Below the pieces are notes generated by a model that was given only the letters and a program-made list of their open reading frames with translations, searched no databases and was not told the origin of the DNA. The translations under genes were made by a program, and so were the position numbers. A stretch of 61,970 nt of DNA, taken from assembly GCA_001724265.1 (NCBI GenBank), contig MEDY01000151.1, positions 1 to 61,970 of the forward strand, given 5' to 3'. Each line of letters begins with the position of its first letter. Position 1 is the first letter of the stretch. This document shows positions 7,401 through 51,833 of this stretch, one piece after another. Source of the stretch: Rhizaria sp. SCN 62-66. Taxonomy: Eukaryota.

Positions 7401-10400
7401 TGTCTCCAACGCCAAGGGCAGCGGTGCTGGTAACGGTGAGGCGACTGCGGGCAGCACCAGCGGTGGCGGCAGCGGCAGCGGCGCGTTTGAGCTCGTGACC
7501 GTGGGGACCGTTGACCGCAGCCGCCGCGACCGCTACCGCGCGTGGCCCACGGTCACCCCCGCCGTCTCCAAGCTTGTCGACGGCGCCATCAAGAGCCAGA
7601 GTCAGAGTGAGGCTGCGCCTGACTCCGACTCTGATCCGGCCTCTGATCAGTCACAATCGCAGAGTGTGTCACGCCCGTTCGTCGCCCCCGGCCCCGCCGC
7701 GTCCGCGTGCGCCGCGCAGCCCTCCGCCAGCGCGCCCGCGGCCGGCCCCGGCGCCGCGACGGCGGGCGCAGTGGCCCATTACCTGCGCTACGACGCCGTC
7801 TCCGACGCGGACGTGCTTGTCGCGCTCGAGCGCAGCGTCTACGGCGTGTACACAGCCTCGGTCATTGGCTGGACGCACCACCGCTGCCCTGCCGACAATG
7901 GCAACGGTGGCGCGACGGGAGACGCCGGGGCGCACTCTGCGAGCAGTCCCATCTACGCCGGCCTGCCGCCGATGTGGGCTGGGCCCGCCAAGGAGACTCT
8001 TGGGGCTCCTCAACGCGCGAAAAAGAGCGCTACCACGACTGGGTCTGACGCAAACGCGGATAGTGACAGCAAGATTGGTGCCGACGATGCTGTCACTGAA
8101 GTACAGCAGGAGCAGGAGCAGGAGCAAGTGCGGCACTTGACGCAGTACTCCCGGCTGCACGCGCGGCCGTGCGAGGCCTGTGCGCCGGCGCCGCTGCCCC
8201 CGTCGCGCACCCGCGGCGGCGGCCTCTTCGCGCTGTGCGGCTGCCGCTGCCACGCGCGCGCCGGCGCCGGGCGCGGCCACGGCCACCGGCACCGGCTGCC
8301 CGCGGCCGCGCAGACGCTGGCGTTCGGCACGCCGCTGCTGGTGCCGCCGTCGCAGTTTCGCGGCGCTGCCGAGCACCTTGACTCGCGCGAAGGGCTGCAC
8401 GACCGCATTGTCAAGGCGACGCGCGATCACCAGCTGCACCACCGCAGCCGCGCGCACGCGCAGTCGGTCGCCGCGCTGCAGCAGGCGCGCGCCCAGTCGC
8501 GCGCGCGCGCCGCGGCGCGGGAGCGGGCGGCGGAGACGGCGCGCGGCCGTGTGATGGAGGAGGATGAGGTGGAGAGACTGGAACGCGAGCTCAGCGCAGG
8601 GCCGATCGCGGCGGGGCACTGGCTGCAGCAGCAAGAGCGACAGCAGGAACTTCTGCAACAGCATCAACAGCAACAGCAGCAACAGCAACAGCAGAATAGC
8701 GACGCCAGCACGCAGGCTATCAGTAATGCAAGTGGCGGCGTTGTCGGTGCTGACGCCAGCATGGACCAGGGTGCGCTAGCTGCGCTGCTGAATCCCTCCG
8801 CCGCGGGCCATGACAGTGCTGCTGCCCCTGCGGGTGACAGTGCTGCCGACTTGGCCGCAGATCTCGATGCCCTGCCTCGAGCGGCTGCAAACGGCACCAT
8901 TGCACGCGAGACTTTTGCACCTCCCATGACCACTGCCTCGCAACAGAATGCACCTGCCATGGCGTCTGTTATTGCTCCAGTAGGAAGTGAAAATCTTCCT
9001 GTGCACTATCCGTCCAGCACGAGCGCGTGCGTAGGCCCTGGCGTGACGTCGGTGCTGGGCGGCGACCGCGCCGAGTCCCCCGGTGTCTCCGTGCCAGTCT
9101 GGCGCCGCGCCCGCACTGCGGCCGAGGCCGGCCACTGCGTCACCAAGATGGTCTCCGGCTTTGACGCCGACACGGACCCCATCGCGCGCGCACACGCAGC
9201 TGCAGACTCGCATACGCTACCGCGCGCGAGCTCCGGCTCCCGCCTCGGGCCCGGTGCGCTCGTCTACTCGTCGATGCCGACGTTCACATCGGCGTACCTG
9301 CCGTCGCAGTCGCCTCTGTCGCCAGCGCTGCACGCCGCCGCGCTCGTGCAGCGCGGGGCCGGCACGCGCCCCCACTCCGCCGCCGCTGCAGCCGCGGCCG
9401 CCGCAGCCTCCGTTGGATCTCCAGCGAACGCTGAGCGGATGACTGGTTGGTCCGGCGCAGTGCTGCACACGCAGACGCACGTGCGCGGCCACCGCTTCGT
9501 TCCGCCGCCGCTGGTGCCCTACCAGCCCGTGTCCGCCGCGTCCGCCGCCGCCTCAGCCGCGCGCGCCGCTGCAGCCACCACCGTGGCGACCGCTGCTGCG
9601 ACTGAACGCGCCACGGCCGTGGCGGCGCGCGCGGGCACGTGGGTGCCCGTGGGACAGGGCGTGCGTGTGGGCGCCGCCGCGTACGAGCCCAAGCTCGCGG
9701 TCGGCGAGGCTGCGGGCCCGCTGCGCCGCGGCGCGGGCGAGCGAAGTGCCCCCACCACGCTGTCGCTCGCGCACGCGCTCTCGATCTGCTCCCCCGCAGT
9801 CCCCGCCGCGGGCGCGGAGCTGGCGGTAGCGTCCCCCGCCGCCGTCGCCGGCGCGGTCGCGGCGGGCGTGACCGTGGGCCGCGCGTCGGCCGCGGGCGTT
9901 CCCGCCGCCGGACCCGTCCGCACGGCGGCCGCCGCGGCCGCCGCCGAGGCGCGCGCGCGGGCGAAGCAGACCCGCCCCGCGTCGGCCGGCGCAGTGCGCC
10001 TCCAGGCGCCGGGCGTGAATGAGGTCGCGTCGTTCGTGATGCGCCGGCTGCCCCCCGGTTCCGTGGCGGCGGAGCAGCGCGCCAAGACCAAGGCCGTGCT
10101 CAGCGCCAACGCCGCGGGGGGCAAGAATGAGGCCGCCGCGGCGCCGCCTGCTGCGGAAGCGCCTGCCAAGAGCGTTGCGAAGCCCAAGCCCAAGCCGAAG
10201 GCGGTCAAGGCCGAGAGTGTGGCTAAGAGTGACGAAAAGACGGGTGGCGATAATAAAGATAAAGAGAAGGCCAAGGCGAGTCCTGTGGTGACGAAGAAGC
10301 CTGAGACGAAGCCTGTCTCTAAGTCTGCGACTGCGCCCGCACCTGCTGTGACAGCTCCGGTTTCTTCACGCGACAAGAGCACGCTGAGTGTAACTGGCGA

Positions 10401-12045
10401 GCTGCCGACTGCGCGCACCAAGAGCGGACGCCTTGCCGTGCCTGCGCAAAGTCTAGCCGCTGCCTCACCGAAACCCGTCCCCGTTCCTGTCCCGGTTCCT
10501 GCGCCTGCTCCTGTTCCGCTCCCCGTCTCCGTCGCCGCCGCCGCCACCACCGCCGCCGCTGGCGCCGGCGAAAGCGACGTGGAGATCGACGTCGGGCTCA
10601 GCGGGCTCATCTCGCCACCTTCGCCGCTATCGCCCGCCGCGGACCCCACGGGCTCTGCTCACGGTCACTCGAGCGAGGCGCACCCGCTCGTGCCCGCGCT
10701 CGCGCTGCCGCTGGCGCCCCAGCCCACGGCAGCACCGCCCGTGAGGGGGCCCGCGACTGGGGCGGCGACGCAGGCGGTGCGGCGCCCGTCGCTGGCCCCG
10801 CCCGACATGAGTCTGCCGCCGCCGCCGCTGCCCTCGCCGCTGCCGCACGGGCACGGTCACGGTCACGGACACCCACATGCATCGACGCAGGCCTCCACAC
10901 CGGCGCCCGTGGCGGTCAGCGGCGGCGTCGGCGACGTCGTCATTATCCCGGCACACATCAGCATCCCGCAGCAGGCGTTCAACCCGTCGCAGCCGCCGCA
11001 TGAGCCGCTGCCGTTGGCGGTGGCGCCCACGGCTGGACTTGCCAGCCTCACCGGCTCCGGGCTCGGCGCAGGACTGGGCCTGGGGCTGCAGAGCGCAGGC
11101 CCCGGCGCCGGCGCGGGAGTGGCGGGCATGGAGACCGTGAGCTTCGGCGTCACCCCGCTCTCGCAGTCGCTCGCGCTGTCGCAGCCGAGCGCGCGCCCGC
11201 TGATGTCTAACGCGCTTGGCACCGGCTCGTTCGGCCTCAGCACCTTCGGCGCTTCCTTCGCGCAACCCGCCGCGATCAACAGCCACAGCACTGGAACAGT
11301 AGCATTCGGTGCTGGTTCGTTCGGCGGCCTCGGTAGCAACAACAACACCTTCGGCGGCGGCTCCAGCACCTTTGGCTACCTTGACCGCGCAGGCCAGAGC
11401 CCAAGCGCGGCCTACGGCGCCGGCGCAGGATACGGGGCTACCGGCCCGAGGCCCGGCTTCGGCAGCGGCAGCGGCGCCGGCGCCGGCGGCAATGGCGGTC
11501 TGAATCCGAGTGTCGACGCGGGTCCAGTGTCTGACCGCGTTGCGCCGGCTGCTTCAGCGAGCCCCGCGCCCTCGCTTGCGTCCTCACTGGCCGCGCAGTC
11601 CGCCGCAGGCAGCGCCGCGCCGTCGGGCCTCAACGTGACCCTGGGCGCTGGCGCTGGCGCTGGCACTGCGATGCCGACTGGGCTGGCGAGGTTAAGTCAT
11701 CTGCGCGACATTGCGCGCAAGTACGCGACGCCCAATGGGTCCGTGGTCAGCGGCTCCACCGTCGCGGGCTCCGTCGTGAGCCGTAACAGCGGCAGCAGCG
11801 GCGGCGGCAGTAACATCGGTACGGGACCAACAACAAACCCCAACAATTCTGGCGCGGCGGTTGTGCCGAGCACCGCGCCGGCGAACAGCGGGGCTGCGCC
11901 GAGAGAGCCTGCGCTAGTGCGCGCGCTCAGCACCAACACGCCCGAGCTGCCGCTGCCGTCGCCGCCCGCAGACGCCACGCCGCGTCCCGGTGTGCCAGCC
12001 ACTGCGCCGGAGACCCTGACGGCAACTGTTAGTGCGCCTGTCTAA
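4488..12045 (+). CDS. Very large (~2470 aa) low-complexity hypothetical protein; exons 4488-6277 and 6420-12045
   Basis: Intron 6278-6419 (GTACGT...TTCGCAG, phase 2) joins ORFs 4458 and 6496 in frame. Ala/Pro/Gly/Ser-rich with several Cys clusters; no domain recognised; TAA stop. Confidence 0.7.
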
Positions 12046-12420
12046 TTGGTTTGAAGAGAACTAAAACACGCGTGATATATAGAAATACACTTGATTTAAC
12101 TTGTACTACAATTATTTTTCAATAATAAAATGCATCCCGCCTTGTACACTTGTTGAAAGTGAGCCGCCAGTCAAAAATCAGCTTCGTTGGACCGAAAAAA
12201 GCGGCGGCCACGTTCTGAGAGAAGAAACTGCCACTATGAAAAGTATCTCTGTTTGACAGCTGTCCATCGTAAGTTACTTTGTGGGCGATGTATCATTATT
12301 CTCATATTAATTTTTATGTAACCTGATTTTGTAGCCTCTAGAGACCCGCAATAAGCCTTCCAACGGGGCTCTGACATCAGCAACTAAACTCAGTCAACGC
12401 CCTATCAGAAATCAAGTGGG

Positions 12421-15400
12421 ATGTCTGACCCGCGCTTCGGCTCTGTCCCGCGCTCCAGCGGCGACCCCGTTGCACAGGCCTACGCGCAGCACGCTGCGCT
12501 GCGCGCCCGCCCGCAGCCTGCGCTCGGCCGTGCCATCCTTGATGGCATGCCCCGCGCCCCGCCTCCTCTGTTCGACTCCTTTTCACCCGCCTCTGCTGGC
12601 CCTGCCGCGCCGCCCGGCGGCTCCGGCGTGGTCTACGGCGATTCGGCCGCCGCGGCGACCGCGCTGGCCGACGATGACATGTTTGTTGGTCCCAAGCACC
12701 GCCCCTCGTACCACCTCAGCGCCGCGGGCGCCGATGCCCTGACTCCTTCTTCATCTTCGTCATCATCATCGTACTCGGCATATTCGCGCCAAGCAGGGCC
12801 AGGCGCGCAACAGCAGCAGCAACCGCAGTACCACTATCAGACGCAGCAGCTTGCTCACGGCGCCACCGCGCGCTTTCGCGTGCCCGTGCCCACAGCTTCC
12901 TCAGGCGCGTCGCTCGCCGCCGCCGCTGCCGCCGCCGCCGCCACTGGTCCCGCCTCGGCGCGCCCTGCCAACAACGGCAGCGGCGGAGGCGGGGGGAGTC
13001 CGCGCCTGCGGGCCTCGCTGACGCCGCGGCTGTCCCGCGCCTCACCTGCGCTTGGCGCCCGCTCCAGCTCCGGCTCCGGCTCAGGTCCGCTCCTACTCCC
13101 GCTCGACTCGACCACAGTGAACCCCAGTGCAAGCGCCGGGGCGAACGCGGGCTTCTCTTCGTACCCGGCATCGTCGCGCGCGATGGGGGCCTCCGCGGCG
13201 GCGTCCCCGCCCGTGACGTCCCCGCTGCTGCTGGGGCAGGTCACCGGCGGCTTCAGCTCGCTGCAGCAGCAACAGGCGGCCGCCGTCGCCGCCGCCACCG
13301 CCGCCGCCACGGCCGGCCGCGGGCGCCGCGGGCGCCGCGCCGCAGCAGCAGCAGCAGCAGCCGCGGCAGCCCCGCGCCCGCGCGTGCAGTTCGCGGGCGG
13401 CGCGCCGCTGCCGCCTCCGACGCCGACCGCGCGCGACGGCAACGGGCTCGGTCTGGACGGCAACGATGACGGCGGCGGCGGGCTCAACGACGGCGACAAC
13501 GACGCGGACGCCGACGGCAGCGCGGGATCGGGCTCCGGCAGCGACAGCGGCTCCGAAAGCGACGACGACGACGACGCGGCCGCGGGCGGCGCGGCGGGCG
13601 TGATTGGCTACTACGGCCGCATCCTCCGCACGGCGCGGCGCGTGCAGCAGTGGGTCGAGCGGTTGCAGCAGAGCGAGGAGCAAGCGCTGCTCACCGCGCA
13701 CGAGTACGACGACGACGCCGCCGGCGCCAAGGACGCTACCGCGGTTGCCGCTGCGGCCGCGGCTGCGGCGGCCGCGGCTGCGGGAACCGGGCCCGAGGCC
13801 GCCGTCGCCGCCGCGGCCGCCTCTGCTGCAGCGCTGGCTGCGGCCGCGGCGGGCGGGCCGGGTGGCGCACAGGGCCCCGGCGGCGACGCGGAGGCGGCGT
13901 CCCAGCCCTCGCGGTCGCGCATCGCGGCGCTGCTTAGCACGCTGGACCTCGCCGGCAAGGAGTCGGCACTGGGTGATCTGGGCGCCTACGTGACCAAGCG
14001 CGCGAGCCTCGAACCCCTGGAGCTCAAGCGGCTGCAGCTCGTCGAGCGCGCGCTGGCTGAGACCGAGTCCGAGCTCGAGTCGCATCTCGCCTCCGTCAAG
14101 GGCTCCGTCGCGGACGGCAACGCGGCGTCGGGCCAACGCCTCCAGGGCTACGAACGGTCTCTGCGTGCGTGGCTTGCTAAGCTCAAGGGCGGCTCGCGTG
14201 CCAACGTCTTCGCCTCGCTCGCGGCCGTCGACGCCAGCGCCGACTCCGCGGCTGCCGCGGGCGGTGAAGGCGGCGCCGCGGGAGGCTCCGGCGCCGCCAC
14301 GGGCGCTGGCGAAGGAGACAGCAACAACCCTCGCGCTGCGGCGGCCGCGGCCAACGACTCGCGGCTGCGGCTGCAGCTGCAGGCGAGTGAGAGCCGCTGC
14401 GTCGAGCTGACCGAACAGGTTGGCTGGCTGCGCGCCGAGCTCGAGGCGCGCGCCGCGGCCGCCGGGGACGCGCGCGCCGTCGCCGCCGTCGCCGCCGCTG
14501 GTGCGGGCGCGCCTCTGTCCGCCGCGCCGGGTCTCGCGCTCGTGCCCACATCCTCCGCGTCCGCGGGCGGCGCGACGCCCGGCGGCGGCAGCGCGGGCAG
14601 CGCGAGCTCGGCCAGCGACTCAGCCGCGGCGGCCGCCGCTGCTGCTGCCGCCTCGGCCTCGGCCGCGGGGCTGTCGCAGATGGTGTCATCCGCGCACTCG
14701 GTCGCCGTCGTCACCGAGCTGCAGCGGCGCTTCGCCGCGGCGGACGAAGGACTGCGCGCGTCGCAGGCCGAGGTGGCGCGGCTCGAGTACCGCCTCGTGG
14801 CGCTGGCGCGGCTGGGCGAGCAAGAAGAGCTGGCCGAGGCGCTGGAGCAGGAGCAGCGCGTGCAGCACGAACACGCAGCCGCACTCGAGGCCGCGCGCGC
14901 GGGGGTCGAGACGGAGCGCGCCGGCATGGCGGCTGAGCGACGCCGCCTCATGGCCGCCACCAAGCGGCTCGAGCTCAAGCAGGAAGCGCTGACGCAACAG
15001 CAGCAGCAGGGCGAGAGCGAGCGCGTCCAGCTGCAGCGCGCGCTGCTGGGCTTGCGCCAGGCCGAGGCGGAGAAGAAGACTCTCGAAGCCGCCGTCGCCA
15101 ACGCTAACGCGGCCGCCGCGACCGCCAACGCCGCGCTCACGGCCGCCGCAGCCGCCGCAGCCGCCGCGACCCCCACCGGCACGCCTGCCTCTGCGTCGGC
15201 CGCCGCAGGAGCGGCCGCGCCGGCGCTGAGTCTGGGTGAAGCGAGCGCCGTGGCTGAGGCCACCGCGCTGCGCCACCGTGTCGCCGCGCTCGAGAAGGAC
15301 GTCGCCACCGCCCGCGCCGCCGCCGCCGCCGCCGCCGCCGCGGGGCGCTCTGGCGGAGGCCGTCTGGCGCCGACGACGGCCGCGACGGTGACTGGCGCCA

Positions 15401-18400
15401 AGGCCAAGGCCGCGGGGTCCCCTGTGGTCTCGCCGCGCGCCGTGTCGATCGCCAACGTCGGCCGCACCGCCGCGCGCGGGGTCTCGTCGTCGCCGGCCCC
15501 CGCGCACGGCCTCCCGCGCCACGGCGCCGCGGGCGGCGGTGACGGTGACGAACACGACGACGGCGCCAGCAAGCTCGCCCGCGGCCGCGCGCTGCTGGCC
15601 GAGCGCCAGGCTCAACGCCGTGGTGGGCCCGGCGCTGTCTCCGCGTCTGGCTTTGAGGCTGAGTCGCCGGCCGACACCGAGGCCGACGCCGAGGCCGTGG
15701 CCGCCGCGGCCAAGATCGTGATGCTGGAGCAGCAGGTCGTGCTGCTGCAGGCGCGGCTCGCCGCCGCCACGCACGGTGCCGCCGTCACTGCCGCGATTGC
15801 AGCTGCCAACGCGGGCGCCGGTGGGCGCCGCGGCAGTGCGAGTCTGTTGGCCGCGTCCGCAGTGCCCACGCTGCCCCCGGCCGTGGCGGCCGCGCTGGCC
15901 GCCGAATCTGCCGTAGCGGCCGCAGCGGGCGAGAATGGCGGCGACGCCGACGCCGACTCTGAAACCCGTCTGCGCGCCGTGATCAACGCGCTCGAGGCCG
16001 AGGAGGCCCGCCGCGAGGTCCTGCAGACCGAGAAGGCTGGCTGGGAGCGTGAGCGTGCCACGCTCCAGGGTCAGCTCGCCGCCGCGCTCGCGCGTACGGC
16101 CGCCGCCGTCTCCGCCGCTGCGGCCGCTGGCGCTGCGGACACTGGCGCCGGCGGCGCCGGCGGCGGCCCTTCGCCGCGCCGCCAGCGCCAGCTCCGCCAG
16201 CAGCGCGCACGCGCGCTCACGGCGACCGTGCGCAGCGACGCCGACAGCTCTGCCGCTGCGGCCGCCGCCGGGGACGCCTCCGGCGACGGCGACGCGGACG
16301 CGCCCGCGGGCAGCGACGACGACGCTGGCGCCGGTGGTGACGACGGCTTCGGCGGCGCGCACCTCGCCGATGACGACGACGACGGCATGGCGGGCACCTT
16401 GGTGTTCGACGCCGCCGCCGCGCACGCCGCCGCGCTGGCGGCCGCGGCCTCGGCCTCGCAGACGGGCTCCGCCTCGGCCGCTGGCTCGGTCGCCGGCGAC
16501 GGCGCCACGCCCACGGGCGGCGCGGCGCTGTCATCCGACGTCGCCGGGTTCTCTGGCGTTGCGCGCGGCCGCTCGGGCCACAGCCGCAGCAGCCGGCGCA
16601 GCGGCATGGCGTCGCGCGATCCTGGCGCGGCGGCCGTGCTCGACGCCGGACTCACCGTGCTCACGGCCAACGAGGCGCTGCTGGCCAAGCTGCAGCACCA
16701 CAAGGATGTCAACGAGGACGGCGCCGCGCGACTCGTCAGCGAGTTCGGCGGCGTGCGCGCGCTGCTCACGGTTCTCGGCGAAGAGAAAGCCGCGCTTGAG
16801 GCCAAGCTCGCCGCCGCACTCGCGGAGCTCAGCGCGCGGGACGCCGCCATGGCCGCCGCGGGGGGCGCCGACTCAGGTTCCCCTGTCGCCGGCGGGGGCG
16901 GGGGCGGCGACGCGTCGGCCAGCGCGGCTGCGCTCGCGGCCGCGCGCGCCGAGGCGGCCGCGGCGGCGGCGGTCGAGGCCGAGGCGCTGCGGCGCGCGCT
17001 GGCTGCTGCGGAGATCGAGAACGAGCGTCTGCGCGCGTACATCGCAGAGCTCGAGGCCCGGCTCGCCGCTGGTCTCCCGACCTCAGCCATTTCACCCTCT
17101 TCCGCGTCATCCTCATCGTCTTCTTCGTCTTCTGTAGCGGAGCCCCCCTCGACCGTCGTGTCGCCCGCGGCGGCCGCTGCTGCCGCCGCGACCGCCAACG
17201 CGGCCGCCGCGTCTGCCGCGGCAACTGTGCGCGACCTCGAGTCGTTGCTGGGCGCGCGCGACACTGCGCTCGCTGCGGCGGAGGCCGAGGCCGGCGAGTG
17301 GCGCGGCCGCTACGAAGCGCTGTGGGCCGAGTCGACGAGAGCACGCCTCGCTGCCGACGCCTCCGCTTCCTCGGGCGCGGGCGCAGCGGCAGCGGCTGCT
17401 GAGGCCGCTGTCGCAGGCTACTACCAAGGCGGCGGTGGCGGCGAAGGCGCTGCCGGCGCGGCGCGCGAGGCCGAGACGACTGCGGTGCTCGCGGCCGCTG
17501 CCGACGCAGTGCTTGCCGCCCGCGCGCGCCGCGAGGAAGAAGAGGAGCGCGCGCGCACGTCAGTGCTGCGCCCGTTGCCGGCCCGCGCGCCGCGCAAACC
17601 CGCGCCCGCGGCGGCGCTGCAGCCCGGCGCACAGCGCGCTCTGCGCAGCAGCGGCGGCGACGGCACGTCGTCCCCCGACCGCCGCGGCCGTGACGGCTCT
17701 GCTTCACCGTCGTCCCCGCGCTCGCGCTCGCCCCAACAGCAGCAACAGCAGCAGCAGCTGGCGGCGCCAGCACCGCCGCCGCCGCGCCCGCGCTCGCGGC
17801 AGCAGCTGGCGGCGCTGCAGGCCGGCGCGGCGGGCGACGCGCACCACGCTTTCGTTGCGCGCTTTATGGCTCTTACCGGTCCTGACGGCAGCGATGATGC
17901 AACAGCGTTAAATGTTGACGACACGGATGGTGCAGTGCCTGAGCGCGCGCCCACGCCGAAGCGCGACGCGGCCGCGGCTGCGCAGCGCAAACAGGTTGGC
18001 GCTCTCGCCAAGCAGCTCCTGCGCGACTCCGACTCCGCCAACGCTGTCTCCGCGGATGACGAGAGTCGCGGCGCGCTCGAGTCGCGTGGCGGCGGCGCGG
18101 AGGGCAGCGACGGCGGCGCGGCGCTCGACGGAGCCGCTGACGGCAGCCTGGTCAACGGCGAGGGCGGCGCGAACTCGATCGCGGCCGCCGCGGCGGAGGC
18201 CGTGTCTGCACTGCGGGCCGCGTCGGCCGCGCACTCGCACCGCAGCGCGCGCCAGAGCGCGCATCAGAGCGCGCTGCACAGCTCGCAGCAGTCGCGCGCG
18301 CACTCGCCGACGCCGTCGACAGGCGCCGCGTCGTCTTCTTCTGCGGCCAGCAACACGTCGGCGTCAGGAGCGGCGGCGGCGCTGGCGAGCCCGCGGCCGG

Positions 18401-18699
18401 CGACGCGGCAGGCGGTGGAGACGATCTTCACAGAGCAGGCCGAGGTCGCCGCGGCCGCCATCGCAGTCCCGCTCACTGGTGACGCCGCGGCGGACGCGCA
18501 AGCCAAGGCGCGCGCTGCTGAGGCTGCCGCGCAGGCGGTTGCCAAAGCTGAAGCCGCTACTGCTGCGGCAGCGCAGAAGCAAAAGCAGGCGCAGGCACAG
18601 GCACAGGCACAAGCTCACGGCGGCAAGCCTGGTGACGCAGGCGGGCTGGATATGAGGTCATTGCAGATGACCGACCAGTACGACTCTTACGTTGAGTAA
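12421..18699 (+). CDS. 2092-aa Ala-rich coiled-coil protein
   Basis: Uninterrupted GC-rich ORF flanked by AT-rich DNA, with heptad-like E/L/R/Q stretches (e.g. ELQRRFAAADEGLRASQAEVARLEYRL); TAA stop. Confidence 0.75.
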   Translation: MSDPRFGSVPRSSGDPVAQAYAQHAALRARPQPALGRAILDGMPRAPPPLFDSFSPASAGPAAPPGGSGVVYGDSAAAATALADDDMFVGPKHRPSYHLSAAGADALTPSSSSSSSSYSAYSRQAGPGAQQQQQPQYHYQTQQLAHGATARFRVPVPTASSGASLAAAAAAAAATGPASARPANNGSGGGGGSPRLRASLTPRLSRASPALGARSSSGSGSGPLLLPLDSTTVNPSASAGANAGFSSYPASSRAMGASAAASPPVTSPLLLGQVTGGFSSLQQQQAAAVAAATAAATAGRGRRGRRAAAAAAAAAAAPRPRVQFAGGAPLPPPTPTARDGNGLGLDGNDDGGGGLNDGDNDADADGSAGSGSGSDSGSESDDDDDAAAGGAAGVIGYYGRILRTARRVQQWVERLQQSEEQALLTAHEYDDDAAGAKDATAVAAAAAAAAAAAAGTGPEAAVAAAAASAAALAAAAAGGPGGAQGPGGDAEAASQPSRSRIAALLSTLDLAGKESALGDLGAYVTKRASLEPLELKRLQLVERALAETESELESHLASVKGSVADGNAASGQRLQGYERSLRAWLAKLKGGSRANVFASLAAVDASADSAAAAGGEGGAAGGSGAATGAGEGDSNNPRAAAAAANDSRLRLQLQASESRCVELTEQVGWLRAELEARAAAAGDARAVAAVAAAGAGAPLSAAPGLALVPTSSASAGGATPGGGSAGSASSASDSAAAAAAAAAASASAAGLSQMVSSAHSVAVVTELQRRFAAADEGLRASQAEVARLEYRLVALARLGEQEELAEALEQEQRVQHEHAAALEAARAGVETERAGMAAERRRLMAATKRLELKQEALTQQQQQGESERVQLQRALLGLRQAEAEKKTLEAAVANANAAAATANAALTAAAAAAAAATPTGTPASASAAAGAAAPALSLGEASAVAEATALRHRVAALEKDVATARAAAAAAAAAGRSGGGRLAPTTAATVTGAKAKAAGSPVVSPRAVSIANVGRTAARGVSSSPAPAHGLPRHGAAGGGDGDEHDDGASKLARGRALLAERQAQRRGGPGAVSASGFEAESPADTEADAEAVAAAAKIVMLEQQVVLLQARLAAATHGAAVTAAIAAANAGAGGRRGSASLLAASAVPTLPPAVAAALAAESAVAAAAGENGGDADADSETRLRAVINALEAEEARREVLQTEKAGWERERATLQGQLAAALARTAAAVSAAAAAGAADTGAGGAGGGPSPRRQRQLRQQRARALTATVRSDADSSAAAAAAGDASGDGDADAPAGSDDDAGAGGDDGFGGAHLADDDDDGMAGTLVFDAAAAHAAALAAAASASQTGSASAAGSVAGDGATPTGGAALSSDVAGFSGVARGRSGHSRSSRRSGMASRDPGAAAVLDAGLTVLTANEALLAKLQHHKDVNEDGAARLVSEFGGVRALLTVLGEEKAALEAKLAAALAELSARDAAMAAAGGADSGSPVAGGGGGGDASASAAALAAARAEAAAAAAVEAEALRRALAAAEIENERLRAYIAELEARLAAGLPTSAISPSSASSSSSSSSSVAEPPSTVVSPAAAAAAAATANAAAASAAATVRDLESLLGARDTALAAAEAEAGEWRGRYEALWAESTRARLAADASASSGAGAAAAAAEAAVAGYYQGGGGGEGAAGAAREAETTAVLAAAADAVLAARARREEEEERARTSVLRPLPARAPRKPAPAAALQPGAQRALRSSGGDGTSSPDRRGRDGSASPSSPRSRSPQQQQQQQQLAAPAPPPPRPRSRQQLAALQAGAAGDAHHAFVARFMALTGPDGSDDATALNVDDTDGAVPERAPTPKRDAAAAAQRKQVGALAKQLLRDSDSANAVSADDESRGALESRGGGAEGSDGGAALDGAADGSLVNGEGGANSIAAAAAEAVSALRAASAAHSHRSARQSAHQSALHSSQQSRAHSPTPSTGAASSSSAASNTSASGAAAALASPRPATRQAVETIFTEQAEVAAAAIAVPLTGDAAADAQAKARAAEAAAQAVAKAEAATAAAAQKQKQAQAQAQAQAHGGKPGDAGGLDMRSLQMTDQYDSYVE

Positions 18700-26236: not shown

Positions 26237-29200
26237 TCACTTGATGTCGAGCGTGACGCGAATGTTCATCGCAGCGAGCTCGTGTGCAAGGTACAGGAAC
26301 GAGAACGGGATCGCAATCATCGTGCACCCGGCGCCCGAGTTACACATGCGGCACGTGACGTTCGTAGTCGCCTGCACAAACTCGGCCGCCGCCGCCTCCT
26401 CGGGGTTCGCGCCGGCCTTGGCGGCGGCCATCGCGGCAGCGGCCGCGGCCGTGGCGGCGGCGTCGGCCTGCGCGGCGGCCTGCTCGTGCGGCACGGCGTG
26501 CGCCGCGAGCAGCGACCCGCAGTCTTGGCACGCGTACGTCGTGTGGTAGTCTGACGAGTTCATCAGACGGTCGTGCAGGAAGTACGACACACCGTGCGCG
26601 ATGAGCGAGTCACGCTCCATTTCACCGAAACGGATACCACCGTGCTTCTTGCGGCCCTTGACGGGCTGGCGGTGCTCCGACGACACGGGACCCGTGGCAC
26701 GCGCCTGGAACTTGTCTTTCACCATGTGGCGCAGACGTTGGTAGTAGACGACGCCGACGAAGATGTCCGCCATCAGCGGCTCGCCCGAGATGCCCGAGTA
26801 CAGCGGCTCAGAGCCGAGGTAGTTGTAGCCCGCGGACCGGAGCTCCTTGCCGAAGTGGTCCACGGCGCGGTGCTGCTCGTCGAACTGGAACGGAGTGCCG
26901 TCCTGGAACTTGCCGTGCAGTGCGCCGGACTTGCCCGCCATAGACTCGATAAGCATGCCGATTGTCATGCGCGACGGGAAGGCGTGCGGGTTGATGATCA
27001 CGTCGGGCGTCAGGCCAGACTCGGTCCACGGCATGTCAACCGAGGGGAACAGAATCGACAACACACCCTTCTGACCGTGACGTGAGGAGAACTTGTCGCC
27101 GATGCACGGGTTACGGTTCATGCGGAGCCAGAGACCGAGCTTCTGCATCTCACCGTCCTGCACGCCCAGCGCGCGGACCTCCTCCACGTACGCAGGCTCC
27201 GTGTCCTTGAACTTCTCGAAACGCGTGACGCCCGTGACTGAGTTGTTCACCGCAGCCAGGGGCTCCGACGGGTGAACGAGCTGGCCCACGCGCGGGAGAC
27301 CGTCGGCGTCGAGCGCGGGGTTCGCGGCCTCGGGGTGGGACGCGCTGCTGCCCGCCTTGAGGTTCGAAAAGCGGTGGCTGATGGGCTCGCCGCGCTGGCG
27401 GTCCTCGGACAGGTCCACAGTCTAGGGGAGAAGAAAAGGAACAAAAGAACAAAGAGACAAAAGATAAAGTTAGTCCCATGGTACAGAGAGAAGATAGAAG
27501 AAGACTGAGTGTTATAAAGGTCATTTTGGTTTGATATTAGTATAATCGTACCTTGTACTTGTAGACGGAGCCGTGTCCGAAGCCACGCTCGTAGGCAGAC
27601 TTGTTGATAATCATAGCATCTTCCATATCATATCCGGTGTAGGAGATGACAGCGACAACGGCATTGCAGCCCATGGGGTACTCGTCGAAGAGGTACTTCT
27701 GGTACGGCCCCTCGTTGCGCACGATCGGCGTCTGCGGGTTCTGGATGCGGAACACCTTGTTGTCGACGCGGTACGGGTACGAGTGGAATGGCGTACCCAT
27801 CGTCTGCTTACCCATCTGGCAGTTGCCGGTAAAGAAGGGCGACAGACCGCACGCCTGCACGGCATCCTCGTCGTCCCACGCAGCGCGGCGGCGCGTGAGG
27901 AAGTTGCCGGACGGCACGGTGATGCAGTACTTGCGGCCCACGTACTGGCTGAGCACGGGCCGCGGCAGCGCGGCGACGCTCTCGGCCTCGCCCGCCGACA
28001 CCGTGATCTCCCAACACGTGGCCGCGGCGGCGGCGCCGAGCGGCCCCGCGGCAGCGCCCTTCTTGTGGCAGACGCCGACCTGCGGCCGGGCGTCGGCCAG
28101 GAGCGCGAGCGCGGCCAGATCGTTGATCAGCGGCAGACTGCTGTTGACGCCACGACGCACCGACGCGTCCGCGCCCTCCGCGGGCTGCGCCTTGTCGGTG
28201 GCCATAAAGCCCTCGATGAGCGCGCGCGCCTGGGCGCGGCTGAGGCGGAGGCGCCACGCGTAGTGGACCCAGCGGCGGAGCGCCTGCCAGTCGCCGCGCT
28301 CCACGCCCTCGGGCGCGGCGCAGTCAACCGCGGCGCCCGACGCCACGGCGCGGTACACGGCAGCGTGGTCGTACGCCTTGACGTCGGCCGCCGACAGGGG
28401 GTCGTAGCCCACAGCGCCGACGGTCATCGGCAGGAAGAAGTCGTACATCGCGCGGTTCGCGACGCGGTACAGGGTCTTGCCCTCGGCGTCCTGGGACACG
28501 CTGTAAGTGAACGTGTCGGCGGCGACGTCGCGCAGGCGGTTCAGCACGCCCTCGATGCCCGCGCACTGTTGGACAGTGGTGTTGTAGCAGTTGCGTCCCT
28601 GCGCGTCGACAGAGTGCTCGACGCCACCGTCGCCCAGTACGAGGCCGATCAGACGGCAGAAGTCGAGGTTAGGCTCCTCGGCGCCGCGCACGGCCTCGGG
28701 CAGCCAGGCGCAGTCACTGAACGTGTACAGCGGGTTTGCGTTGTGGCCCGTGACAGGCAGACGCTCGGCGCTGTGGTCGCCGTGGTCCCACTGCTCGTTG
28801 GCACCGCCGCAGCCGACGAGCTTGCCGTCGAGCGCGTCCTGCACGGTGCGGTAGCGCCACATCGACGGCGCGTTCGCGTTGCTGAGCAGGAAGCGATGCT
28901 CAGGCGTGCACAGCGCGTCAACCTTCGCGGACTTGAGCGCGTACCATTGACCGGCGTGGGGCTCGTCGAGCTTGGCCGTGACCGCCTCCCAGCGGTGCGC
29001 CAGCGTTGTCGTGTCGGCCACCAGCACGCTGTCGCCGACGCGGACGTCGACAATGGAGCACCAGCCGTGGTTCGTCAGCACGTCGTGGTCGCCGCTGAGG
29101 CACTGATACATGTTACGCGGCGACTGGTTGTGGTCAGAGAAGGGCGTCAGTGACGCGATGACCGAGAGCATCGCCGTGGGGTTGATCTCCTGGTGAGTGG

Positions 29201-31262
29201 TGAGACCGAGCGAAAAGTCCGCGGCCGTGACGGCAATCTCCATCGTCAGCTGCTCCATAGCGCCGATGTACTCGACCACGGGGTGCGGCACGGCGGCCGT
29301 GGGCAGGTAGTACACGGGCCGCTGGAAGCGCGCGGCGGCTGTGGAGAGGATCACGGCCGGGAACATCTTGTCCGCGTAGTCAACCACGGTGAAGATCTCG
29401 AGGTGCTTGTCGAAGGCGTCGTGACCGGAAACCTTGAGGAAACGCACGCGCGCGGCGAACGACGCGGCCTCGAGCTGCGGGACGCGGCCGACGAGCACGC
29501 CGTCGAGCATGACGGGCAGGTCAGAGGCCAGCGCGGGCAGGAACGGGTCGCGCATGCCGATGGCGAAGAGCTGCTTCGTCGTCTGGCGCGGGTCGACCTT
29601 GCTAGGGTGCGTGAGGATCTGGCAGGCGGCGGACAAGTGGTTCAGCAGACCGCAGGGCGAGCCGTCGGGCGTGTGCACAGGACAGACGAAGCCCCAGGAC
29701 TCGGGCAGCAGCTTACGGACCGCGGTGGTCTTCATGGTGGTGAAGAACTGACCACGGTGGATCGAGCGGAAGTGCGACAAGTAACGGTAGTAGTTAAGCT
29801 TCTCGGCGTTGATGGTGTAGCCGGAGACCTGCATCATATCCAGACCGGTGCGCGAGACGAGGTTACCGGTGGTGATGAAGTACGCCAGCTTGCGGCCGAT
29901 CTCGGGCACGCGGTCCGACAGCTTGCGCCAGAAGGCCACGTCGCCCAGCGACGCGCGCGCCGATGCCGAGAGCCGCAGCTCGCGCATGAGGTTGGACCGC
30001 AGCGTGGTGAGGAAATCGTGCACACTCTCCTTGAGCAAGAGGTAGTACATGTGGCCCGGCAGAAGTACTTCGTGCGACGACAGCGCGTCGACGTGGTCGG
30101 GTGTGATCTTGCCCTGCACCAGCAGCAGCAGGCGCTGGATCATGAGGATGACGAGGTCGAACTTGGCCTGGTTGATCGCGTCCTCGCTCGCCGTGGGGTC
30201 GAAGTCCTGCACGTGGATGAAGAGGTACTCGCGCAGCAGCTGCAGACCGACCTGAGCGTCGGACAGATCGCGATCGGCGCGGATCATGTTGCGGAAGTGC
30301 GAGCCAAGGTATGCAAGCACCTCGGACTGGGAGCGAAGACCGAGCATCTTGGACTCGCGCAGCATGAGTTCAGTGCGTTCCGACTCGAACGCCAGCGACG
30401 AGTCCGAAAACGTGATCTTCTCGTAGATCTCGCGGTCCGTGGCGCCCGTGAGCCCCTTGAGCACGAGCACGGCGGGCAGGAACAGCTCCTGCTTGCGCGC
30501 GACGAAACGCAGGTTGACGCCACCCGTCTCGAGGTAGTGCGCCGTGACCGTGATCGACGAGTGGTCTTTGCGCACGCAGCGCATCGTGGTGCCGTACTTG
30601 GTGTACTCGGCGCCACGCGTGAGGAACGACGAACGGATCAGCGTCGAGATGTGGTTGCGGCGCGGCATGATGAGCAGACGCACGCAACGCTCGTTGCCGT
30701 TCATGATGAAGTAGCCACCCCACTCGCCGGCCTCTTCCTTGGCGCAGACAAGCTGCGCGCGCGACATGCCCTTGAGGTGGCAGCGGCTGGAGCGCACCAT
30801 GATCGGCAGACGACCCGAGGGACGCGAGAAGTCGACCCAAGGCGCGGACGAGGAGCCGACGCGGTACTCGAGCTGGAGGTTCAGGGGGGCGTCGTAGGTG
30901 ATACCAAGCTGGCGCGCCTCGGTGGGCAGGAGCTGGTGTGAGGCGTTGGAGGAGGACGTCGGCATGTCGACCTTGATCTCCTTGATGCGGAACTCGACCT
31001 GCGGGTGCGCGGCGGCGCCCTCGCCGGCGGCGATGCGCATGGTAGGCATCGTGGCCACGGCGTGGCTCAGACCGCCTCCGGGCTCGAACATCCAGTCAAA
31101 CGAGTCGAGGTGCGGCTTGACGAGGCCATAGAGGGAAGAAGAGTCGGCCGTCTGGACGTTGTGACTGAACTGGCCCGTGCGGCGCTGCTGCTTGAACTTA
31201 AGCAGGGCCTCCTTGTGCTCGGTGATCAGGTCGGCCGCGAAAATCTCGGTAGAGGAAGACAT
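26237..31262 (-). CDS. RPA2: RNA polymerase I second-largest subunit precursor containing an intein; exons 31262-27552 and 27421-26237
   Basis: Pol I-type motifs GGYFIMNGNER, SHFRSIHRGQFF, VRKLLPESWGFVCPVHTPDGSPCGLLNHL, HNQSPRNMYQ/CQMGKQTMG, GYDMEDAMIINK, GDKFSSRHGQKG, YYQRLRHMV, GGIRFGEMERD and a C-terminal Zn ribbon. Intron 27422-27551 (GTACGA...CCCTAG, phase 0); TGA stop. Confidence 0.96.
27822..29102 (-). mobile_element. Intein (427 aa) with LAGLIDADG homing-endonuclease region, in frame within RPA2
   Basis: Splits the conserved NMYQ|CQMGKQ. Block A CLSGDHDVLTNHGW, block B LCTPEHRF (TxxH), block F YCITVPSGNF, block G FFTGN followed by +1 Cys. LAGLIDADG-like LIGLVLGDGG and LIEGFMATD. Confidence 0.95.
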
Positions 31263-33236
31263 TGCGGAGTGCGGGTGTGAAAAAGTGGGCGCGTTACAGC
31301 ACCAACCAAGAGCGAACAAGCGCGAGAAAGTAACGCGAAATGGAAAGGAGCCGAGACGCGGGTGCGTGTCGTGCGCCAAGAGAAGGCTCCGGGAAGGGCA
31401 GGAGCTGTCTCGCTGGGAAAATGTCCACGCTCAAAGGCTTGTGGGCGCTCGGAACGGAGGGTCTAAAGCGTAAAAGATGTGCAAAAGAAAGAATATATGC
31501 TTTGTAAGCGTATCATTGAAAAGAATTGGCCTAACAATGCGTACAAGCGGAGGAGCTTCGTAAACAAGTCAGCTTGAGTGCGTGCGGGCCTCCTCACTCG
31601 GCTGCAGACGGCTCCTGTTATGCCTTTTGTTAGAGGGGAAGAAACCAATGTTAGCGTAACTAAACGCAACACGCTGTTCATCGGTGAACTTTTCTACTAT
31701 TTTTGTTTAGAAACATTGTAAAACGGCATTCCGCACGTGCAATAACGACTTTTCCCGCTCCCGGCGAACCGACTTTTGCGTGGCCCTGTTCCGTCGTCCT
31801 GTGCGGGAGTTTTTCGGAACTGCAAATGCATTTCCTCGCAAACCAATCACTTTTTCATCGATACAACAGTATTTCATTCATATAAATGCGCACTAACATT
31901 TGCTTGGGCATATTTAAGCTGTGATTTATTTTGTAGTTATGTTTTTGCCGCTTATTTAAGTTGTTAGTTACGTGTATCAGTGGCATTCCCATGTGGCTGC
32001 AGCTGAGATTCAGTCTGTTTCATGTTATTCCAGTGCTGCGACAATCTCAAATGAGCCTAAATTCAGTAATAATTACGATATTTGTTTGCCTTTTGCTCTT
32101 TGGTGTGACTTTTGCGGCGCTCATTGGCGATTTTGTTTTTTAAATCCGTCTTAGAAACATGGATCATCTTTGAAGCTGCGTAAGTACGTGTGTTGGCAGC
32201 GCTAAGATCAGTTATGATCAAAACGCTGACTGCACAATGAAACCTCCATGAGGTTAATGATAAAGCACTTAAACATTTTAACAATATCACTTTGATTTGG
32301 TGCTACGGTGGGCCGTAGTTAATCATGACTTGACGTTGGACAGTAGCCTTTTTGTACTTTGTACGGAAGATACGTCGTCATCTTGAGGTGTCTGTTTAAA
32401 AAGATAAATTTATATGTTAAACATAATTTTTTTTCTTGTTGAATTTGCTATTTTTATGCGTATACTACTAAGATACATTGAGAAATCTTCTGTTTTTCAC
32501 ATTTTATTCATTTTCGTTAAAATTGAGGGCAATTTTGTATATTAAATTCAAATTTACAATTTTCAACATGTCTAAGTACAAGTAGTCTGCAAATAGTGGG
32601 ATAATAGCTTTTAAACACAGTAATAAATATTTCTTGAGAATACATTCAATCCAAGTGATATACAAGCATAAGAGTGATTGCATCTCAAAGACCTCAGATG
32701 TGTCACTTGGACTATGAGACTTGCAGATGTCAGCGTGAACAACTTTGATTCACGCTTTAAGCGATATGCTTACCGAGTTGTTATGTAGCATTGCAAATAA
32801 TGCGTGCCTGCATTGTCCACATGCTGTTTTCATGCCAAACTTTGCTTTGTTCAAGTTGAGATAGACAGCGATCACCAACGCATGCATCTAAGTCAAGCCA
32901 TCGCAGTTTGTGCATAAAGAGCGTTTTGCAATGCGATAGGCACGCACATGGCCGTAATAAAAGCAAACAGCTTGATCTACTAGCGGTGCAGTGCGTGTCA
33001 CAGCGTAGGTTGAGACGGCTAGCGCGACAGCGCCGGTTATTGCATCCCAATGCGTGACATCTTCATGACACTGCTGCGAGCATATCTTTGCCAGTTAGTC
33101 ATCATAGATCGCGTCATCCAGGTGTGATTCGATTAAAAGCAAGACGACAAACCACGCTTTTAAGCGAATTACGTTAAAATGTATGTGCTTTCAAATCTAG
33201 AGGCATGTATTGTCTGAAAGAGATTGTTTAAGTGGC

Positions 33237-49323: not shown

Positions 49324-51833
49324 TCACTCATCATCGTCATCATCGTCATCATCCGACTCGAACGCGAACGAGCCGCCCGCGGCAGGCGCCGGCGGCCCCG
49401 GGCGCGTCCCCGCGGGCGGGCCCGGACGTGCCGCAGCCGCCGAAGGCCCCGGCCGCGCGCCAGCAGCGGGAGCAGCAGCAGCAGCAGCAACATGAGGGCG
49501 GCCAACGACAATCGGCGCGACACGTGATTGCTGCTGCACAGGAGCCGCAGCCAGAGGAGCCGCAGCAGCAGCGGCGACGGGCGCCGCGCCGTTGGTGTAG
49601 ATGAACGTGGCCTTGGCGACCGCGGCCGCAGCGGCTTCCTCGTCGTCCTCTCGGATCACGCGCGCCTTCCCAGCGCCGGCGCCGCGACTGCCGGCGACTA
49701 TGCGCGCCAGCGCCGCGTCTTCGACAGCCGAGGTCCCAGTCGCAGCGCGCGCGCGGGCAGCGGCAGCGGCCGCCGCAGCGGAGGCAGTGGCAGGAGCTGC
49801 GGTGACGCTGGACATGTCGTCATCATCGTCGTCGTCGCTGTCGCCGACCTTGAAGCTCCCCTTGCCAGATTTTCCGGCTTGACTGCCCGCCTTGGCTTCC
49901 GCCTTGGCCTTGGCCTTCGCGGCGGCCGCGCTGGCGGCGGGGCGGGTGTACGCGTCGTCGTCGTCGTCGCTGTCGGCGGCGTTGCGGCGATTCCGGCGGC
50001 GTCCCGCAACCTCGGGCACTGCTGTTGCAGCGGCGGCAGCGCTCTTTGACTTCGAGTGCATCGCCGCCGCAGCAGCAACGTTGTCTTCGTCGCTGTCGTC
50101 GCCGCGTTTGCTGTTGCCCTTTTTGCCGCCCTTCTTGCCGCCCTTCTTGGTGTTCGCCGCATTGCCACCGCTGTTGTTGTTGTTCTTGATCGCAGCGGAG
50201 ATGTCATCGTCGATGCGCAGAGACAGCAGCGAGTCCAACAGCGCACGCTCACGCGCCCCGTCGTCATCGTCATCGTCGTCGCCCAGCCGACCCTTGCCCT
50301 TCCCCTTGCCCTTGCCCTTCCCTTTACCGCCCGCGCGCGCCGTGGCCGCAGCCAGGATCGCGCTGTCATGGGTCGAGTCGAGCCCGACGTCAATCCTCGC
50401 AGATGCAGCTGCAACAGAGGCTGCGGCAGCAGCGGTCGTGGCGGTGCGGAGAGGCATGTCGTACTCGTCGTCGTCCTCATTCTCATCGTCGTCGCCGTCG
50501 TTATGAGTGATAACGGGCTTCTTACCGGCCTTGGCAGACTTGCCGCCCTTCTTCTTGGCCGCGGCCATAGCAGCGGCAGCGGCGGCGGCAGCAGAGGTTT
50601 CGCCATCATCGTCGTCATCGTCGGTGTCTTCGAAAGCGAAACGGTTCTTGTTGCTGTTGGTGCGCGCAAATGACGTCATCTCTTCTTCCTCGTCTTCCTC
50701 TTCCTCCTCTTGCTCCTCCTCCTCCTCCTCCTCCTCCTCGTCATCATCATCGTCGTCGTCATCATCGCTTTTAGACGACTTGGCACCCTTAGCTGCCTTG
50801 CCCTTACCCTTCGCGCCCGCGGCCAGCTGCGCCTGCGCCTGTGCCTTGGCCCTCGCGCTGGCGCCTGCGCTCGCGCCGCTGACCGCCGCGGCGACACCGG
50901 CGTCGTCGCCGTCAATACGCGCATCCACGATCTCCACGCTGACGTCGGCCGCCGCAACGCCCGCAGCCTGCTGCGCCTCGGTCAGCGCGGCCGCCAGCGC
51001 GCGGTACCGCTCCGGCTCCAGCACCAGCACGCTCTCCCAGAGCCCGGCGCCGCGGTGCGCGGACTCGACCGCCAGCGCCAGCGGCAGCGCGGCGGCCGCG
51101 AGGGCGTCGCCGGCGCGGGCGGGCGCGGTCACGCGGACGCGCATTGGCGCGCGTTGGATGGGGATCAGCGTCTTGAGCTGCGGAATGAGCTCCAGCGCAA
51201 GCTGCTTGGCCGTGCGGCGCTCGGGCAGCGAGACGTGGAGCTGTTCCAGGGCCTTTGCGACGAGACGAGGCGGGAGAGGAAGACGGGTCTCGGAGTTGAT
51301 GCACATCGAGACGATGAGGCTGACGACCTCGCGCTCGCGCTTTTCGCGGTCGTGCGCGCGCTCGCGGTCGGACACCTGCATCTTGCCCTTGTCGAGGATG
51401 AGGCGGCACACTTCGGCCGTGTCGCGGGTGCCGAAAGCCTCTTGCAGGTCCTTGCCAGAGGCGACTTGGCCCTTGGAGACGTTGCGGTACACAGTGTCGG
51501 ACTGAAGCACGTTGGACATGTCCTTCTCACTGCGCAAGTAACAAAAAGCGATGGGGTTTTATGTAAGATACGAGATAAAGCGAAAGAGCGTGAGTTTGCG
51601 GGTAAGATGGATGTGCAGGGGTAGAGACTACAAGATGGTCAGAAGCCGAGGGTGACGACAGCAGAGAGAAGGATACAGGATGAGCTAGGGGCGACGTACA
51701 CTTTACGGCGCCAGTCAAGGACCTTGTTGGGAAAACAGGCAATCTCGAAACGTTGGCCACCAACGTCGTAGCGCACAAACACAATGTTTGTGAGGCGCAC
51801 TTGACCAATGGGCTGCTTGACGCCACTACTCAT
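49324..51833 (-). CDS. SBDS: Ribosome maturation factor SBDS/Sdo1 with long low-complexity C-terminal extension; exons 51833-51700 and 51529-49324
   Basis: QPIGQVRLTNIVFVRY..GQRFEIACFPNKV, EKDMSNVLQSDTVYRNVSKGQVA, AKQLALELIPQLK..IPIQRAPMR. Intron 51530-51699 (GTACGT...GCGCAG, phase 2); TGA stop. Confidence 0.93.

Follow-up and report, generated by a model that had tools for sequence, protein, structure and literature searches.

An intein of the Phaeosphaeria nodorum RPA2 family in the RNA polymerase I gene of a probable cercozoan

Introduction

The closest described system is the RPA2 intein of the fungus Phaeosphaeria nodorum (Pno RPA2; RPA2 is RNA polymerase I's second subunit). The Pno RPA2 intein is 455 amino acids long, is flanked by cysteines, ends in Gly-Asn, and carries a LAGLIDADG domain that was judged to be degenerate; an ancient origin followed by loss was preferred over transfer (Goodwin 2006, PMC1635734). 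RPA2 inteins that are near-identical in type to Pno, and that are followed by CQMGKQ, are given for Baudoinia and Pyrenochaeta in supplement 2 of Green 2018 (PMC5784728). The same source has this family at the homologous site of RPB2, in Pseudocercospora musae and four Tilletia species, and of RPC2, in Melanopsichium. The word "paralog" does not appear in its main text, and the cross-paralogue occurrence is shown in its table.

Movement of inteins between paralogues, and to non-allelic sites at conserved regions, has been described in Anaeramoeba (Gallot-Lavallee 2023, PMC10710043), along with introns at empty intein sites and proteomic proof that an RPB2 intein is spliced (PMC10710043). Giant viruses and dictyostelids also have RPB2 inteins at the insertion point considered here (QSPRN.YQ, followed by C or S).

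Results

The RPA2 gene and its insert

The window, which is the whole stretch of 61,970 nucleotides that was analyzed, encodes an RPA2 protein on its minus strand. From the start of the gene, the features are:

29103..31262, minus strand: RPA2 exon 1, N-extein; 720 amino acids, last residues NQSPRNMYQ
27822..29102, minus strand: intein, predicted to be of class-1 type with a two-motif LAGLIDADG endonuclease; 427 amino acids
28743..29102, minus strand: N-terminal Hint region (approximately residues 1-120), with Cys1 and, in block B, Thr66, His69, and Arg70
27987..28697, minus strand: LAGLIDADG homing-endonuclease domain (approximately residues 136-372), with a match to I-DmoI and to protein-atlas clusters with LAGLIDADG_3
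28626..28655, minus strand: intact first motif of the LAGLIDADG pair (block C), LIGLVLGD158G
28191..28223, minus strand: second LAGLIDADG motif (block E), LIEGFMATD303K, with the Asp retained and the next Gly changed to Lys
27822..27950, minus strand: C-terminal Hint region; block F with Cys393 (F:4) and Arg405 but lacking His at F:13; block G with Thr425-Gly426-Asn427
27552..27821, minus strand: RPA2 exon 1, initial 90 amino acids of the C-extein, beginning with Cys+1 and QMGKQ
27422..27551, minus strand: predicted RPA2 spliceosomal intron; 130 nucleotides, GT...AG, AT-rich
26237..27421, minus strand: RPA2 exon 2; 394 amino acids and the stop codon

An earlier note on this DNA had described a 1281-nucleotide in-frame insertion that splits NQSPRNMYQ/CQMGKQ (the slash marks the junction). 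Its position is exact: the insert is 427 codons without a stop, runs from CLSGDH to FFTGN and then meets a Cys, and is in frame within a first exon of 1,237 codons. The predicted precursor has 1631 amino acids, or 1204 once the insert is removed. In the exteins, Pfam recognizes domains 1, 2, 3, 6, and 7 of Rpb2 (the RNA polymerase second subunit), and the Pol I-specific family RNA_pol_Rpa2_4 falls just below its cut-off (E = 5.7e-6, 26.6 bits against a cut-off of 27). The best PDB matches for the last 100 residues of the N-extein are human RPA2 and yeast A135. The insertion site is equivalent to Gln718/719 of A135 and to Gln770/771 of Rpb2; the nearby Arg766 of Rpb2 has a role in NTP binding. 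Because the Pno RPA2 site was assigned to a position close to the active site, within the hybrid-binding domain (Goodwin 2006, PMC1635734), the loop at this site should line the active centre of the polymerase. In the source genome (G000) we found a single locus each for RPA2, RPB2, and RPC2, and no spare RPA2.

The insert is real and is absent from most homologues

We compared 119 other RPA2 proteins: in 113 of them the junction NQSPRNMYQ/CQM is contiguous, and the remaining 6 meet probable introns at or near the insertion site. The empty proteins include the closest relative, P0174, which is 81% identical. (Exon 1 ends at the same point in P0174, which supports the position of the RPA2 intron.) The patchy distribution that the earlier note had raised is thus seen even at close range.

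Contigs from a second study (run X3) carry both junctions with 0 differences, in two pieces (27779-28802 and 28929-31500), so the insert is not an assembly artefact. Contigs from run X5 also span both junctions, and those from run X4 span the N-terminal junction. All four of the runs were aligned to the gene, and no contig joint that skips the insert was found among the matches listed; this evidence comes from assembled contigs, in which rare alleles drop out. The runs that hold the gene are from wastewater and bioreactor samples. Two contigs from a polyA library fall within the insert, but that library may hold DNA, so these contigs cannot show transcription.

Protein splicing is predicted here from the sequence and a structural model, which leaves some room for other accounts: the segment could be removed from the RNA, it could be an artefact of assembly, or it could be a dead insert in a pseudogene. 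We consider all of these to be extremely unlikely. The borders of the insert lack GT-AG ends, and the insert is 71% GC with coding periodicity, whereas the RPA2 intron of the same host is AT-rich. These borders and this composition, with the lack of a skipping joint in the contigs of 4 runs, rule out removal as a spliceosomal intron. The junctions recur in another study, which is not expected of an artefact, and a pseudogene is opposed by our finding no second RPA2.

The earlier note had taken the host-like GC content of the insert as a sign of long residence. The composition is indeed host-like (GC3 is 0.918 in the insert versus 0.894 and 0.878 in the exteins). Long residence is compatible with this, but GC does not provide a date, because dating depends on the GC of the donor.

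A Hint and LAGLIDADG fold with class-1 nucleophiles

The earlier note had named the lack of a Hint-domain hit as grounds for rejecting an intein in RPA2. Scans of the insert with Pfam and NCBIfam indeed gave no family match, and a sequence search of the PDB gave marginal matches to mini-inteins only (E = 0.06-0.75). Yet the modelled fold is clearly Hint plus LAGLIDADG, so profile hits would have been a misleading guide. The AlphaFold model of the insert has a pLDDT of 92.5 (from a 37-row alignment), and Foldseek ranks endonuclease-bearing inteins on top (TliVMA at E = 7.7e-12, and also PI-SceI). In a wide structural search, the TliVMA intein matched 315 residues of the model with Z = 24.5. Mini-inteins superimpose on the model over 133-145 residues (rmsd 1.9-2.3 Å, Z = 15-19), and residues 142-375 match I-DmoI (Z = 12.3). 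The neighbours of the insert in a protein atlas are LAGLIDADG and intein clusters (0.91-0.95).

The catalytic positions are Cys1, Thr66 (B:7), His69 (B:10), Arg70 (B:11), Cys393 (F:4), Thr425, Gly426, Asn427, and Cys+1. The Cys1, TxxH (T66-P-E-H69), terminal Asn, and +1 Cys that had been read from the sequence are thus all in place. From the fold match together with these residues, the insert is a full-length class-1-type intein that is predicted to splice; the modelled fold and the class-1 nucleophiles bear out the idea of an intein in a nuclear RPA2.

The usual His is absent both at G:6, which is Gly426, and at F:13. About 5% of functional inteins have no His at G:6, and for the Ssp DnaE intein, Arg at B:11 was proposed to help the cyclisation of Asn in His-free splicing (PMC4031507). 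In the alignment of the insert, 29 of 31 rows keep Arg70 (B:11), and Arg405 is invariant (34 of 34). The earlier note was correct that the penultimate residue is Gly but had presented it as an oddity. It is instead a rule of the family, with Gly in 32 of the 33 family rows that have a residue there and in Pno RPA2 as well. Because the allelic inteins of Pno and Baudoinia RPA2 also end in Gly-Asn, we consider this ending to be a family trait.

Could splicing instead proceed, wholly or partly, through a branched intermediate on Cys393 of block F, as in class 3, with Cys1 dispensable? Class 3 is marked by the lack of an N-terminal nucleophile along with a triplet of Trp (B:12), Cys (F:4), and Thr (G:5) (PMC5222942). 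The insert has the Cys and the Thr (Cys393 and Thr425), and 11 of its relatives have Trp at B:12. However, its own residue at B:12 is Phe71, its +1 residue is Cys, and Cys1, the hallmark of class 1, is found in all 26 of the alignment rows that reach that position. Furthermore, Cys is the second commonest residue at F:4 among ordinary inteins (PMC4031507). Because both Cys1 and Cys+1 are present, we prefer class 1 and regard a block-F route as very improbable.

A family at one site of three polymerase paralogues

A HMMER search with the intein found 375 proteins at E = 0.001, and the best 150 of the 375 were examined. The top match (E = 9e-60) is P0013, a fragment that resembles the Pno and Baudoinia inteins by eye; the insert is about 35-41% identical to this fungal-type fragment. 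Among the matches, inteins at the same site are found in RPA2 (P0005, P0006, P0007, P0015 from Coemansia, P0019, P0028, P0030, and the fragments P0013 and P0016), in RPB2 (P0008, P0014, and P0017), and in RPC2 (P0018). In a tree of 25 rows (LG+G4, also used for the topology tests on inteins), the same-site inteins of the three paralogues, 14 with the window intein counted in, form one clade (support of 98/99). The RPB2 and RPC2 inteins P0008, P0014, P0017, and P0018 are environmental counterparts of the published ones and cluster with the window intein, and a clade of RPA2 inteins only was rejected (p = 0.025). Most members of the family diverge deeply, with 27-42% identity. Near relatives at non-allelic sites are inteins in LysRS and in a HECT ligase.

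The window intein shares with the Pno RPA2 family the C-extein CQMGKQ, Cys1, the Gly-Asn end, a LAGLIDADG domain, and a similar length (427 versus 455 amino acids). The splicing blocks, compared by eye, also share YC.TV..GNFL.RR and PFFTGN. The differences are that the Pno family's RPA2 host is a fungus, while the host here is probably a cercozoan, and that the Pno endonuclease was judged to be degenerate, whereas the window intein retains both of its catalytic Asp residues. The RPB2 and RPC2 inteins of Green 2018 look like the same family by eye but are in another paralogue and are followed by SAMGKQ or CAMSKQ. Since the same-site clade of 14 rows contains the Pno-like P0013, the window intein is, by sequence comparison, a member of the known family: it adds a new allele to a family first published in 2006. 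On the allelic question that the earlier note had raised, the insertion is allelic to the family of P. nodorum.

A separate lineage in giant viruses

The earlier note had also called for a phylogeny that takes in the RNA polymerase inteins of giant viruses. These inteins turned out to share the site but belong to a different lineage. A pattern scan of a viral collection, which required the C-extein xMGKQAM, found 98 loci with an intein that ends at this site (76 with both junctions visible and 22 with the end only). All of these are of another lineage, and none of the 98 is of the window family. The best BLAST match of the window intein to the 76 two-junction inteins has E = 2e-5 and covers residues 1-74 only. 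Although the giant-virus and dictyostelid RPB2 inteins have the same insertion point, they end, for example, in SSN or HN and their block F has the form SDIxV...HSF. Because these same-site inteins form a separate lineage, the site seems, from the sequences, to have been invaded at least twice.

A viral carrier of the window family was not found in the scan of the viral collection, and a viral protein scan with the intein gave 7 candidates, none of which was confirmed. With none of the 98 same-site viral loci in the window family, a giant-virus origin of the lineage is unsupported. A pattern scan of metagenome DNA found at least 118 loci, mostly inteins of phage polymerases and giant viruses; among the loci listed, no more than a single short one (L074) is a possible member of the window family, so the scan added no genomic context for the relatives of the intein or for the sister clade.

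The host is probably a cercozoan

In a tree of the RPA2 N-extein (IQ-TREE, 30 chosen rows), the gene groups with Bigelowiella and Mataza with support of 99/99. FastTree gave the same placement with a support of 100 (101 rows, with 24 near-duplicate or odd rows excluded). On the basis of this one gene, the host is probably an uncultured cercozoan (Rhizaria). Several observations make this placement less certain. A library named Ploeotia (a euglenid) lands in the same cercozoan clade of RPA2, and our guess is that this is due to contamination.

The RPB2 of the source genome is at most 51% similar to any named protein, which is too divergent to inform lineage. Its only 18S is very divergent as well, with motifs that we take to be heterolobosean. 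An insertion at the monomer junction of polyubiquitin is a lineage marker (PMC12930898, PMC13746701); the polyubiquitin monomers of the source genome begin MS-MQIF, and the assembly holds no monomer junction. Sainouroidea are long-branch cercozoans that are common in wastewater (PMC8827150, PMC10770858, PMC5304391), and a host from this group would reconcile the cercozoan RPA2 with the divergent markers.

Unlike Anaeramoeba, whose inteins are a precedent for movement across paralogues, the source genome is not intein-rich. Our searches turned up a single full intein and a VMA1 relic, which are lower bounds. A search with the Intein_splicing profile found no further inteins, and a query with the sister clade (described below) matched only the window intein and the extein of a DNA polymerase delta; these are lower bounds too.

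Horizontal spread or ancient inheritance

Among the matches listed, the nearest intein is P0005, which is 47.9% identical to the window intein (45% across the endonuclease). The adjacent 216 residues of the N-exteins are 45.3% identical. However, the host of P0005 falls among the opisthokonts (96/97), and in the extein tree, grouping it with the window's host was rejected (AU test, p = 0.00017). The next nearest intein, P0030, has a stramenopile-like extein. The same-site intein of another cercozoan, P0028, is 34% identical to the window intein and falls elsewhere in the tree. Together, these comparisons favour horizontal spread of the intein. The earlier note had made such spread depend on a patchy distribution; what indicates it here is the nearest intein's resemblance, which matches that of the exteins, the rejection of a joint host group, and a clade that mixes paralogues.

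Alternatively, the same intein might go back to an early eukaryote, with vertical descent and loss in nearly all lineages since, as was proposed for this group in Goodwin 2006. Such an inheritance would fit with the fully host-like GC3, with the deep divergence of most family members, and with the second cercozoan that has an allelic intein: a clade of the window intein and P0028 was not rejected (p = 0.059, with P0028 covering 30% of the columns). On the other hand, the identity to the opisthokont-hosted intein equals that of the exteins, even over the endonuclease. Also, the family is mixed across three paralogues that are older than the last eukaryote ancestor, and nearly all of the RPA2 homologues are empty, the closest one included. 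We consider vertical inheritance to be unlikely and prefer horizontal spread.

Is the endonuclease still active?

Both catalytic residues of the endonuclease (Asp158 and Asp303) are kept, the frame is open, and the two-domain model is confident. Together with the existence of an empty relative at 81% identity, this would suit an endonuclease that is still active, in a population where some RPA2 alleles are empty and the intein is now homing. But the position after Asp303 is Gly in 27 of the 32 rows with a residue there, and only the window intein has Lys (Lys304). The model has a coil at 302-314, with no strand straight after the second motif, where one is expected. The insertion site is empty in both RPB2 and RPC2 of the source genome, although the host's RPB2 is identical at 44 of 51 nucleotides around the junction (counted by hand). 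Finally, no empty allele was found in the 4 runs, whose contigs lose rare variants. Ongoing homing is a possibility that we take seriously but would not bet on; from the sequence and the model, the endonuclease is probably decaying, a view that we hold with modest confidence.

A sister clade before cysteines in many proteins

At least 47 of the other 149 matches listed, grouped by motif, form a clade that is sister to the RNA polymerase intein family (support of 99, and a split of 100/98 in the 25-row tree). Among the matches listed, about 46 eukaryotic proteins, unrelated to one another, carry such an intein before a Cys. The hosts include TPR proteins, Ssl1/p44, a protein phosphatase, eIF2B epsilon, RRM proteins, USP, and kinases, as well as PRP8, glutamate synthase, SNF2, UBC, RING, FYVE, and C2H2 proteins. 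The 40 complete copies among the matches listed have 399-1000 amino acids and a median identity of 46%. All 40 are followed by Cys, with 19 different residues before them, and most have intact GDG and ADG motifs. A PHD-like pattern lies inside the endonuclease in 11 of the 40, and such a finger could steer the endonuclease to chromatin. The six records of this clade that we checked are singletons from ENA assemblies. No copy was found in the source genome (a lower bound), and we found no description of the clade in the literature searched.

Discussion

We propose, with a probability of roughly 0.8, that the insert is a true class-1 intein belonging to the Pno family that resides in the single RPA2 of a cercozoan, was acquired horizontally, excises itself, and has the codon usage of its host. 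As we found no second RPA2, rRNA synthesis requires removal of the insert. As its motifs suggest, the intein would be transcribed and translated within the 1631-residue precursor and would then cut itself out, following the four-step class-1 scheme (PMC4031507). Cys1 would form a thioester, aided by Thr66 and His69; Cys+1 would take the N-extein; and cyclisation of Asn427 would restore the polymerase subunit of 1204 residues. Since neither G:6 nor F:13 has a His, the cyclisation step would most likely use Arg70 (B:11), perhaps along with the invariant Arg405. Horizontal transfer, and homing driven by the endonuclease, would have brought the intein into the ultraconserved site, and it would have acquired host codon usage after that. 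It would persist because a site at the active centre of the polymerase tolerates only exact removal.

As an element, the intein is a further allele of the 2006 family and is unsurprising alone, and movement across paralogues has precedent. What is new is the probable supergroup of the host, the opisthokont-type host of the nearest intein, and the empty relative at 81% identity. The distribution table of Green 2018 (PMC5784728) has no rhizarian intein, and we found no report of a nuclear intein from Rhizaria in the open-licence literature, by which this would be the first one found. The incongruence of intein and host is clean and extends across eukaryotic supergroups, with no matching viral lineage, and it bears on whether inteins were inherited from ancient times or spread horizontally.

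The sister clade may represent a transposon-like intein that acts at the protein level and has left the allelic rule to insert before almost any Cys codon. The RNA polymerase family, moving among fungi, other opisthokonts, stramenopiles, and Rhizaria, would then be the start of this escape. We hold this idea tentatively, at slightly worse than even odds, from the sequences of the two groups. If it is true, the sister clade, seemingly excised from nearly any flank before a Cys, would put to the test the ways in which inteins take over new sites and would supply protein engineering with flank-tolerant inteins.

Related inteins in other proteins and other hosts

The group of inteins that branches beside the RNA polymerase intein family in our tree, its sister clade, comprises 47 protein ids among the matches listed (P0020, P0023-P0134), and none of these is from G000, the genome that contains the window. 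Among the matches listed, these inteins lie before a cysteine, at both conserved and non-conserved positions, and their hosts are about 46 eukaryotic proteins unrelated to one another. All 40 complete copies among these matches have Cys at +1, while the residue at -1 is of 19 different kinds; 11 of the 40 also carry a PHD-like insert within the endonuclease.

We also observed other RNA polymerase inteins in relatives of the host (P0301, P0304, P0199, P0008, P0020, P0394, and P0404). P0301 and P0304 have an intein in RPB2 at a site like that of Bde RPB2-c, and by eye these resemble the Batrachochytrium intein. The RPA2 intein of P0199 is at a different site from that of the window, and the RPB2 proteins P0008 and P0020 contain two and three inteins, respectively. 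In the viral collection, 98 loci (L145-L242) encode giant-virus-type RPB2 with an intein, ranging from 135-aa mini forms up to 503-aa full forms. These occupy the same site as the window's intein but belong to a distinct lineage.

Probable introns at the RPA2 intein site

In five relatives (P0193, P0194, P0195, P0175, and P0207), the RPA2 frame ends or becomes non-coding-like exactly at the intein site or two codons beyond it. Three of these are the closest kin of P0028, a cercozoan RPA2 with an intein at this site. Judging from sequence, such breaks are the pattern that would be expected of spliceosomal introns, and they resemble the way in which introns and inteins exclude each other in Bathycoccus and Anaeramoeba.

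Other genes of the window and its genome

Window 1417-18699, forward strand: four long open frames (870, 725, 1895, and 2103 aa, stop to stop)
Window 49324-51558, reverse strand: 744-aa open frame with SBDS N and II domains at its start
Window 53249-54556, forward strand: flavohaemoglobin (globin and FAD/NAD-binding domains)
G000 contigs C3, C168, and C182 (loci L002, L005, and L006): divergent monomeric ubiquitin genes
G000 contig C706, 4459-8903, forward strand: 18S rRNA gene (L014), very divergent, with four group I introns
G000 contig C333, 3314-3862, reverse strand: truncated tandem VMA1 copy (L246/L247; Hom_end_hint, E = 2.5e-13)

The four long frames had no Pfam match. The SBDS-containing frame exceeds the usual length of SBDS. 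Flavohaemoglobin genes have often been acquired by protists from bacteria. The ubiquitin genes, several of them near-identical, start with MS-MQIF and end with GG-HPQ.

By eye, the first intron of the 18S gene seems to contain a His-Cys-type endonuclease frame. Some motifs of this gene are reminiscent of Heterolobosea. The gene may have been assigned to the wrong bin, or it may come from a long-branch cercozoan.

At the canonical site, the truncated VMA1 copy still has the N-terminus of a VMA1-type Hint domain, about 55 aa long and with Arg as its first residue. This remnant is an intein relic. Directly upstream is an intact VMA1 whose canonical site is empty, and the pair is possibly a record of intein loss.
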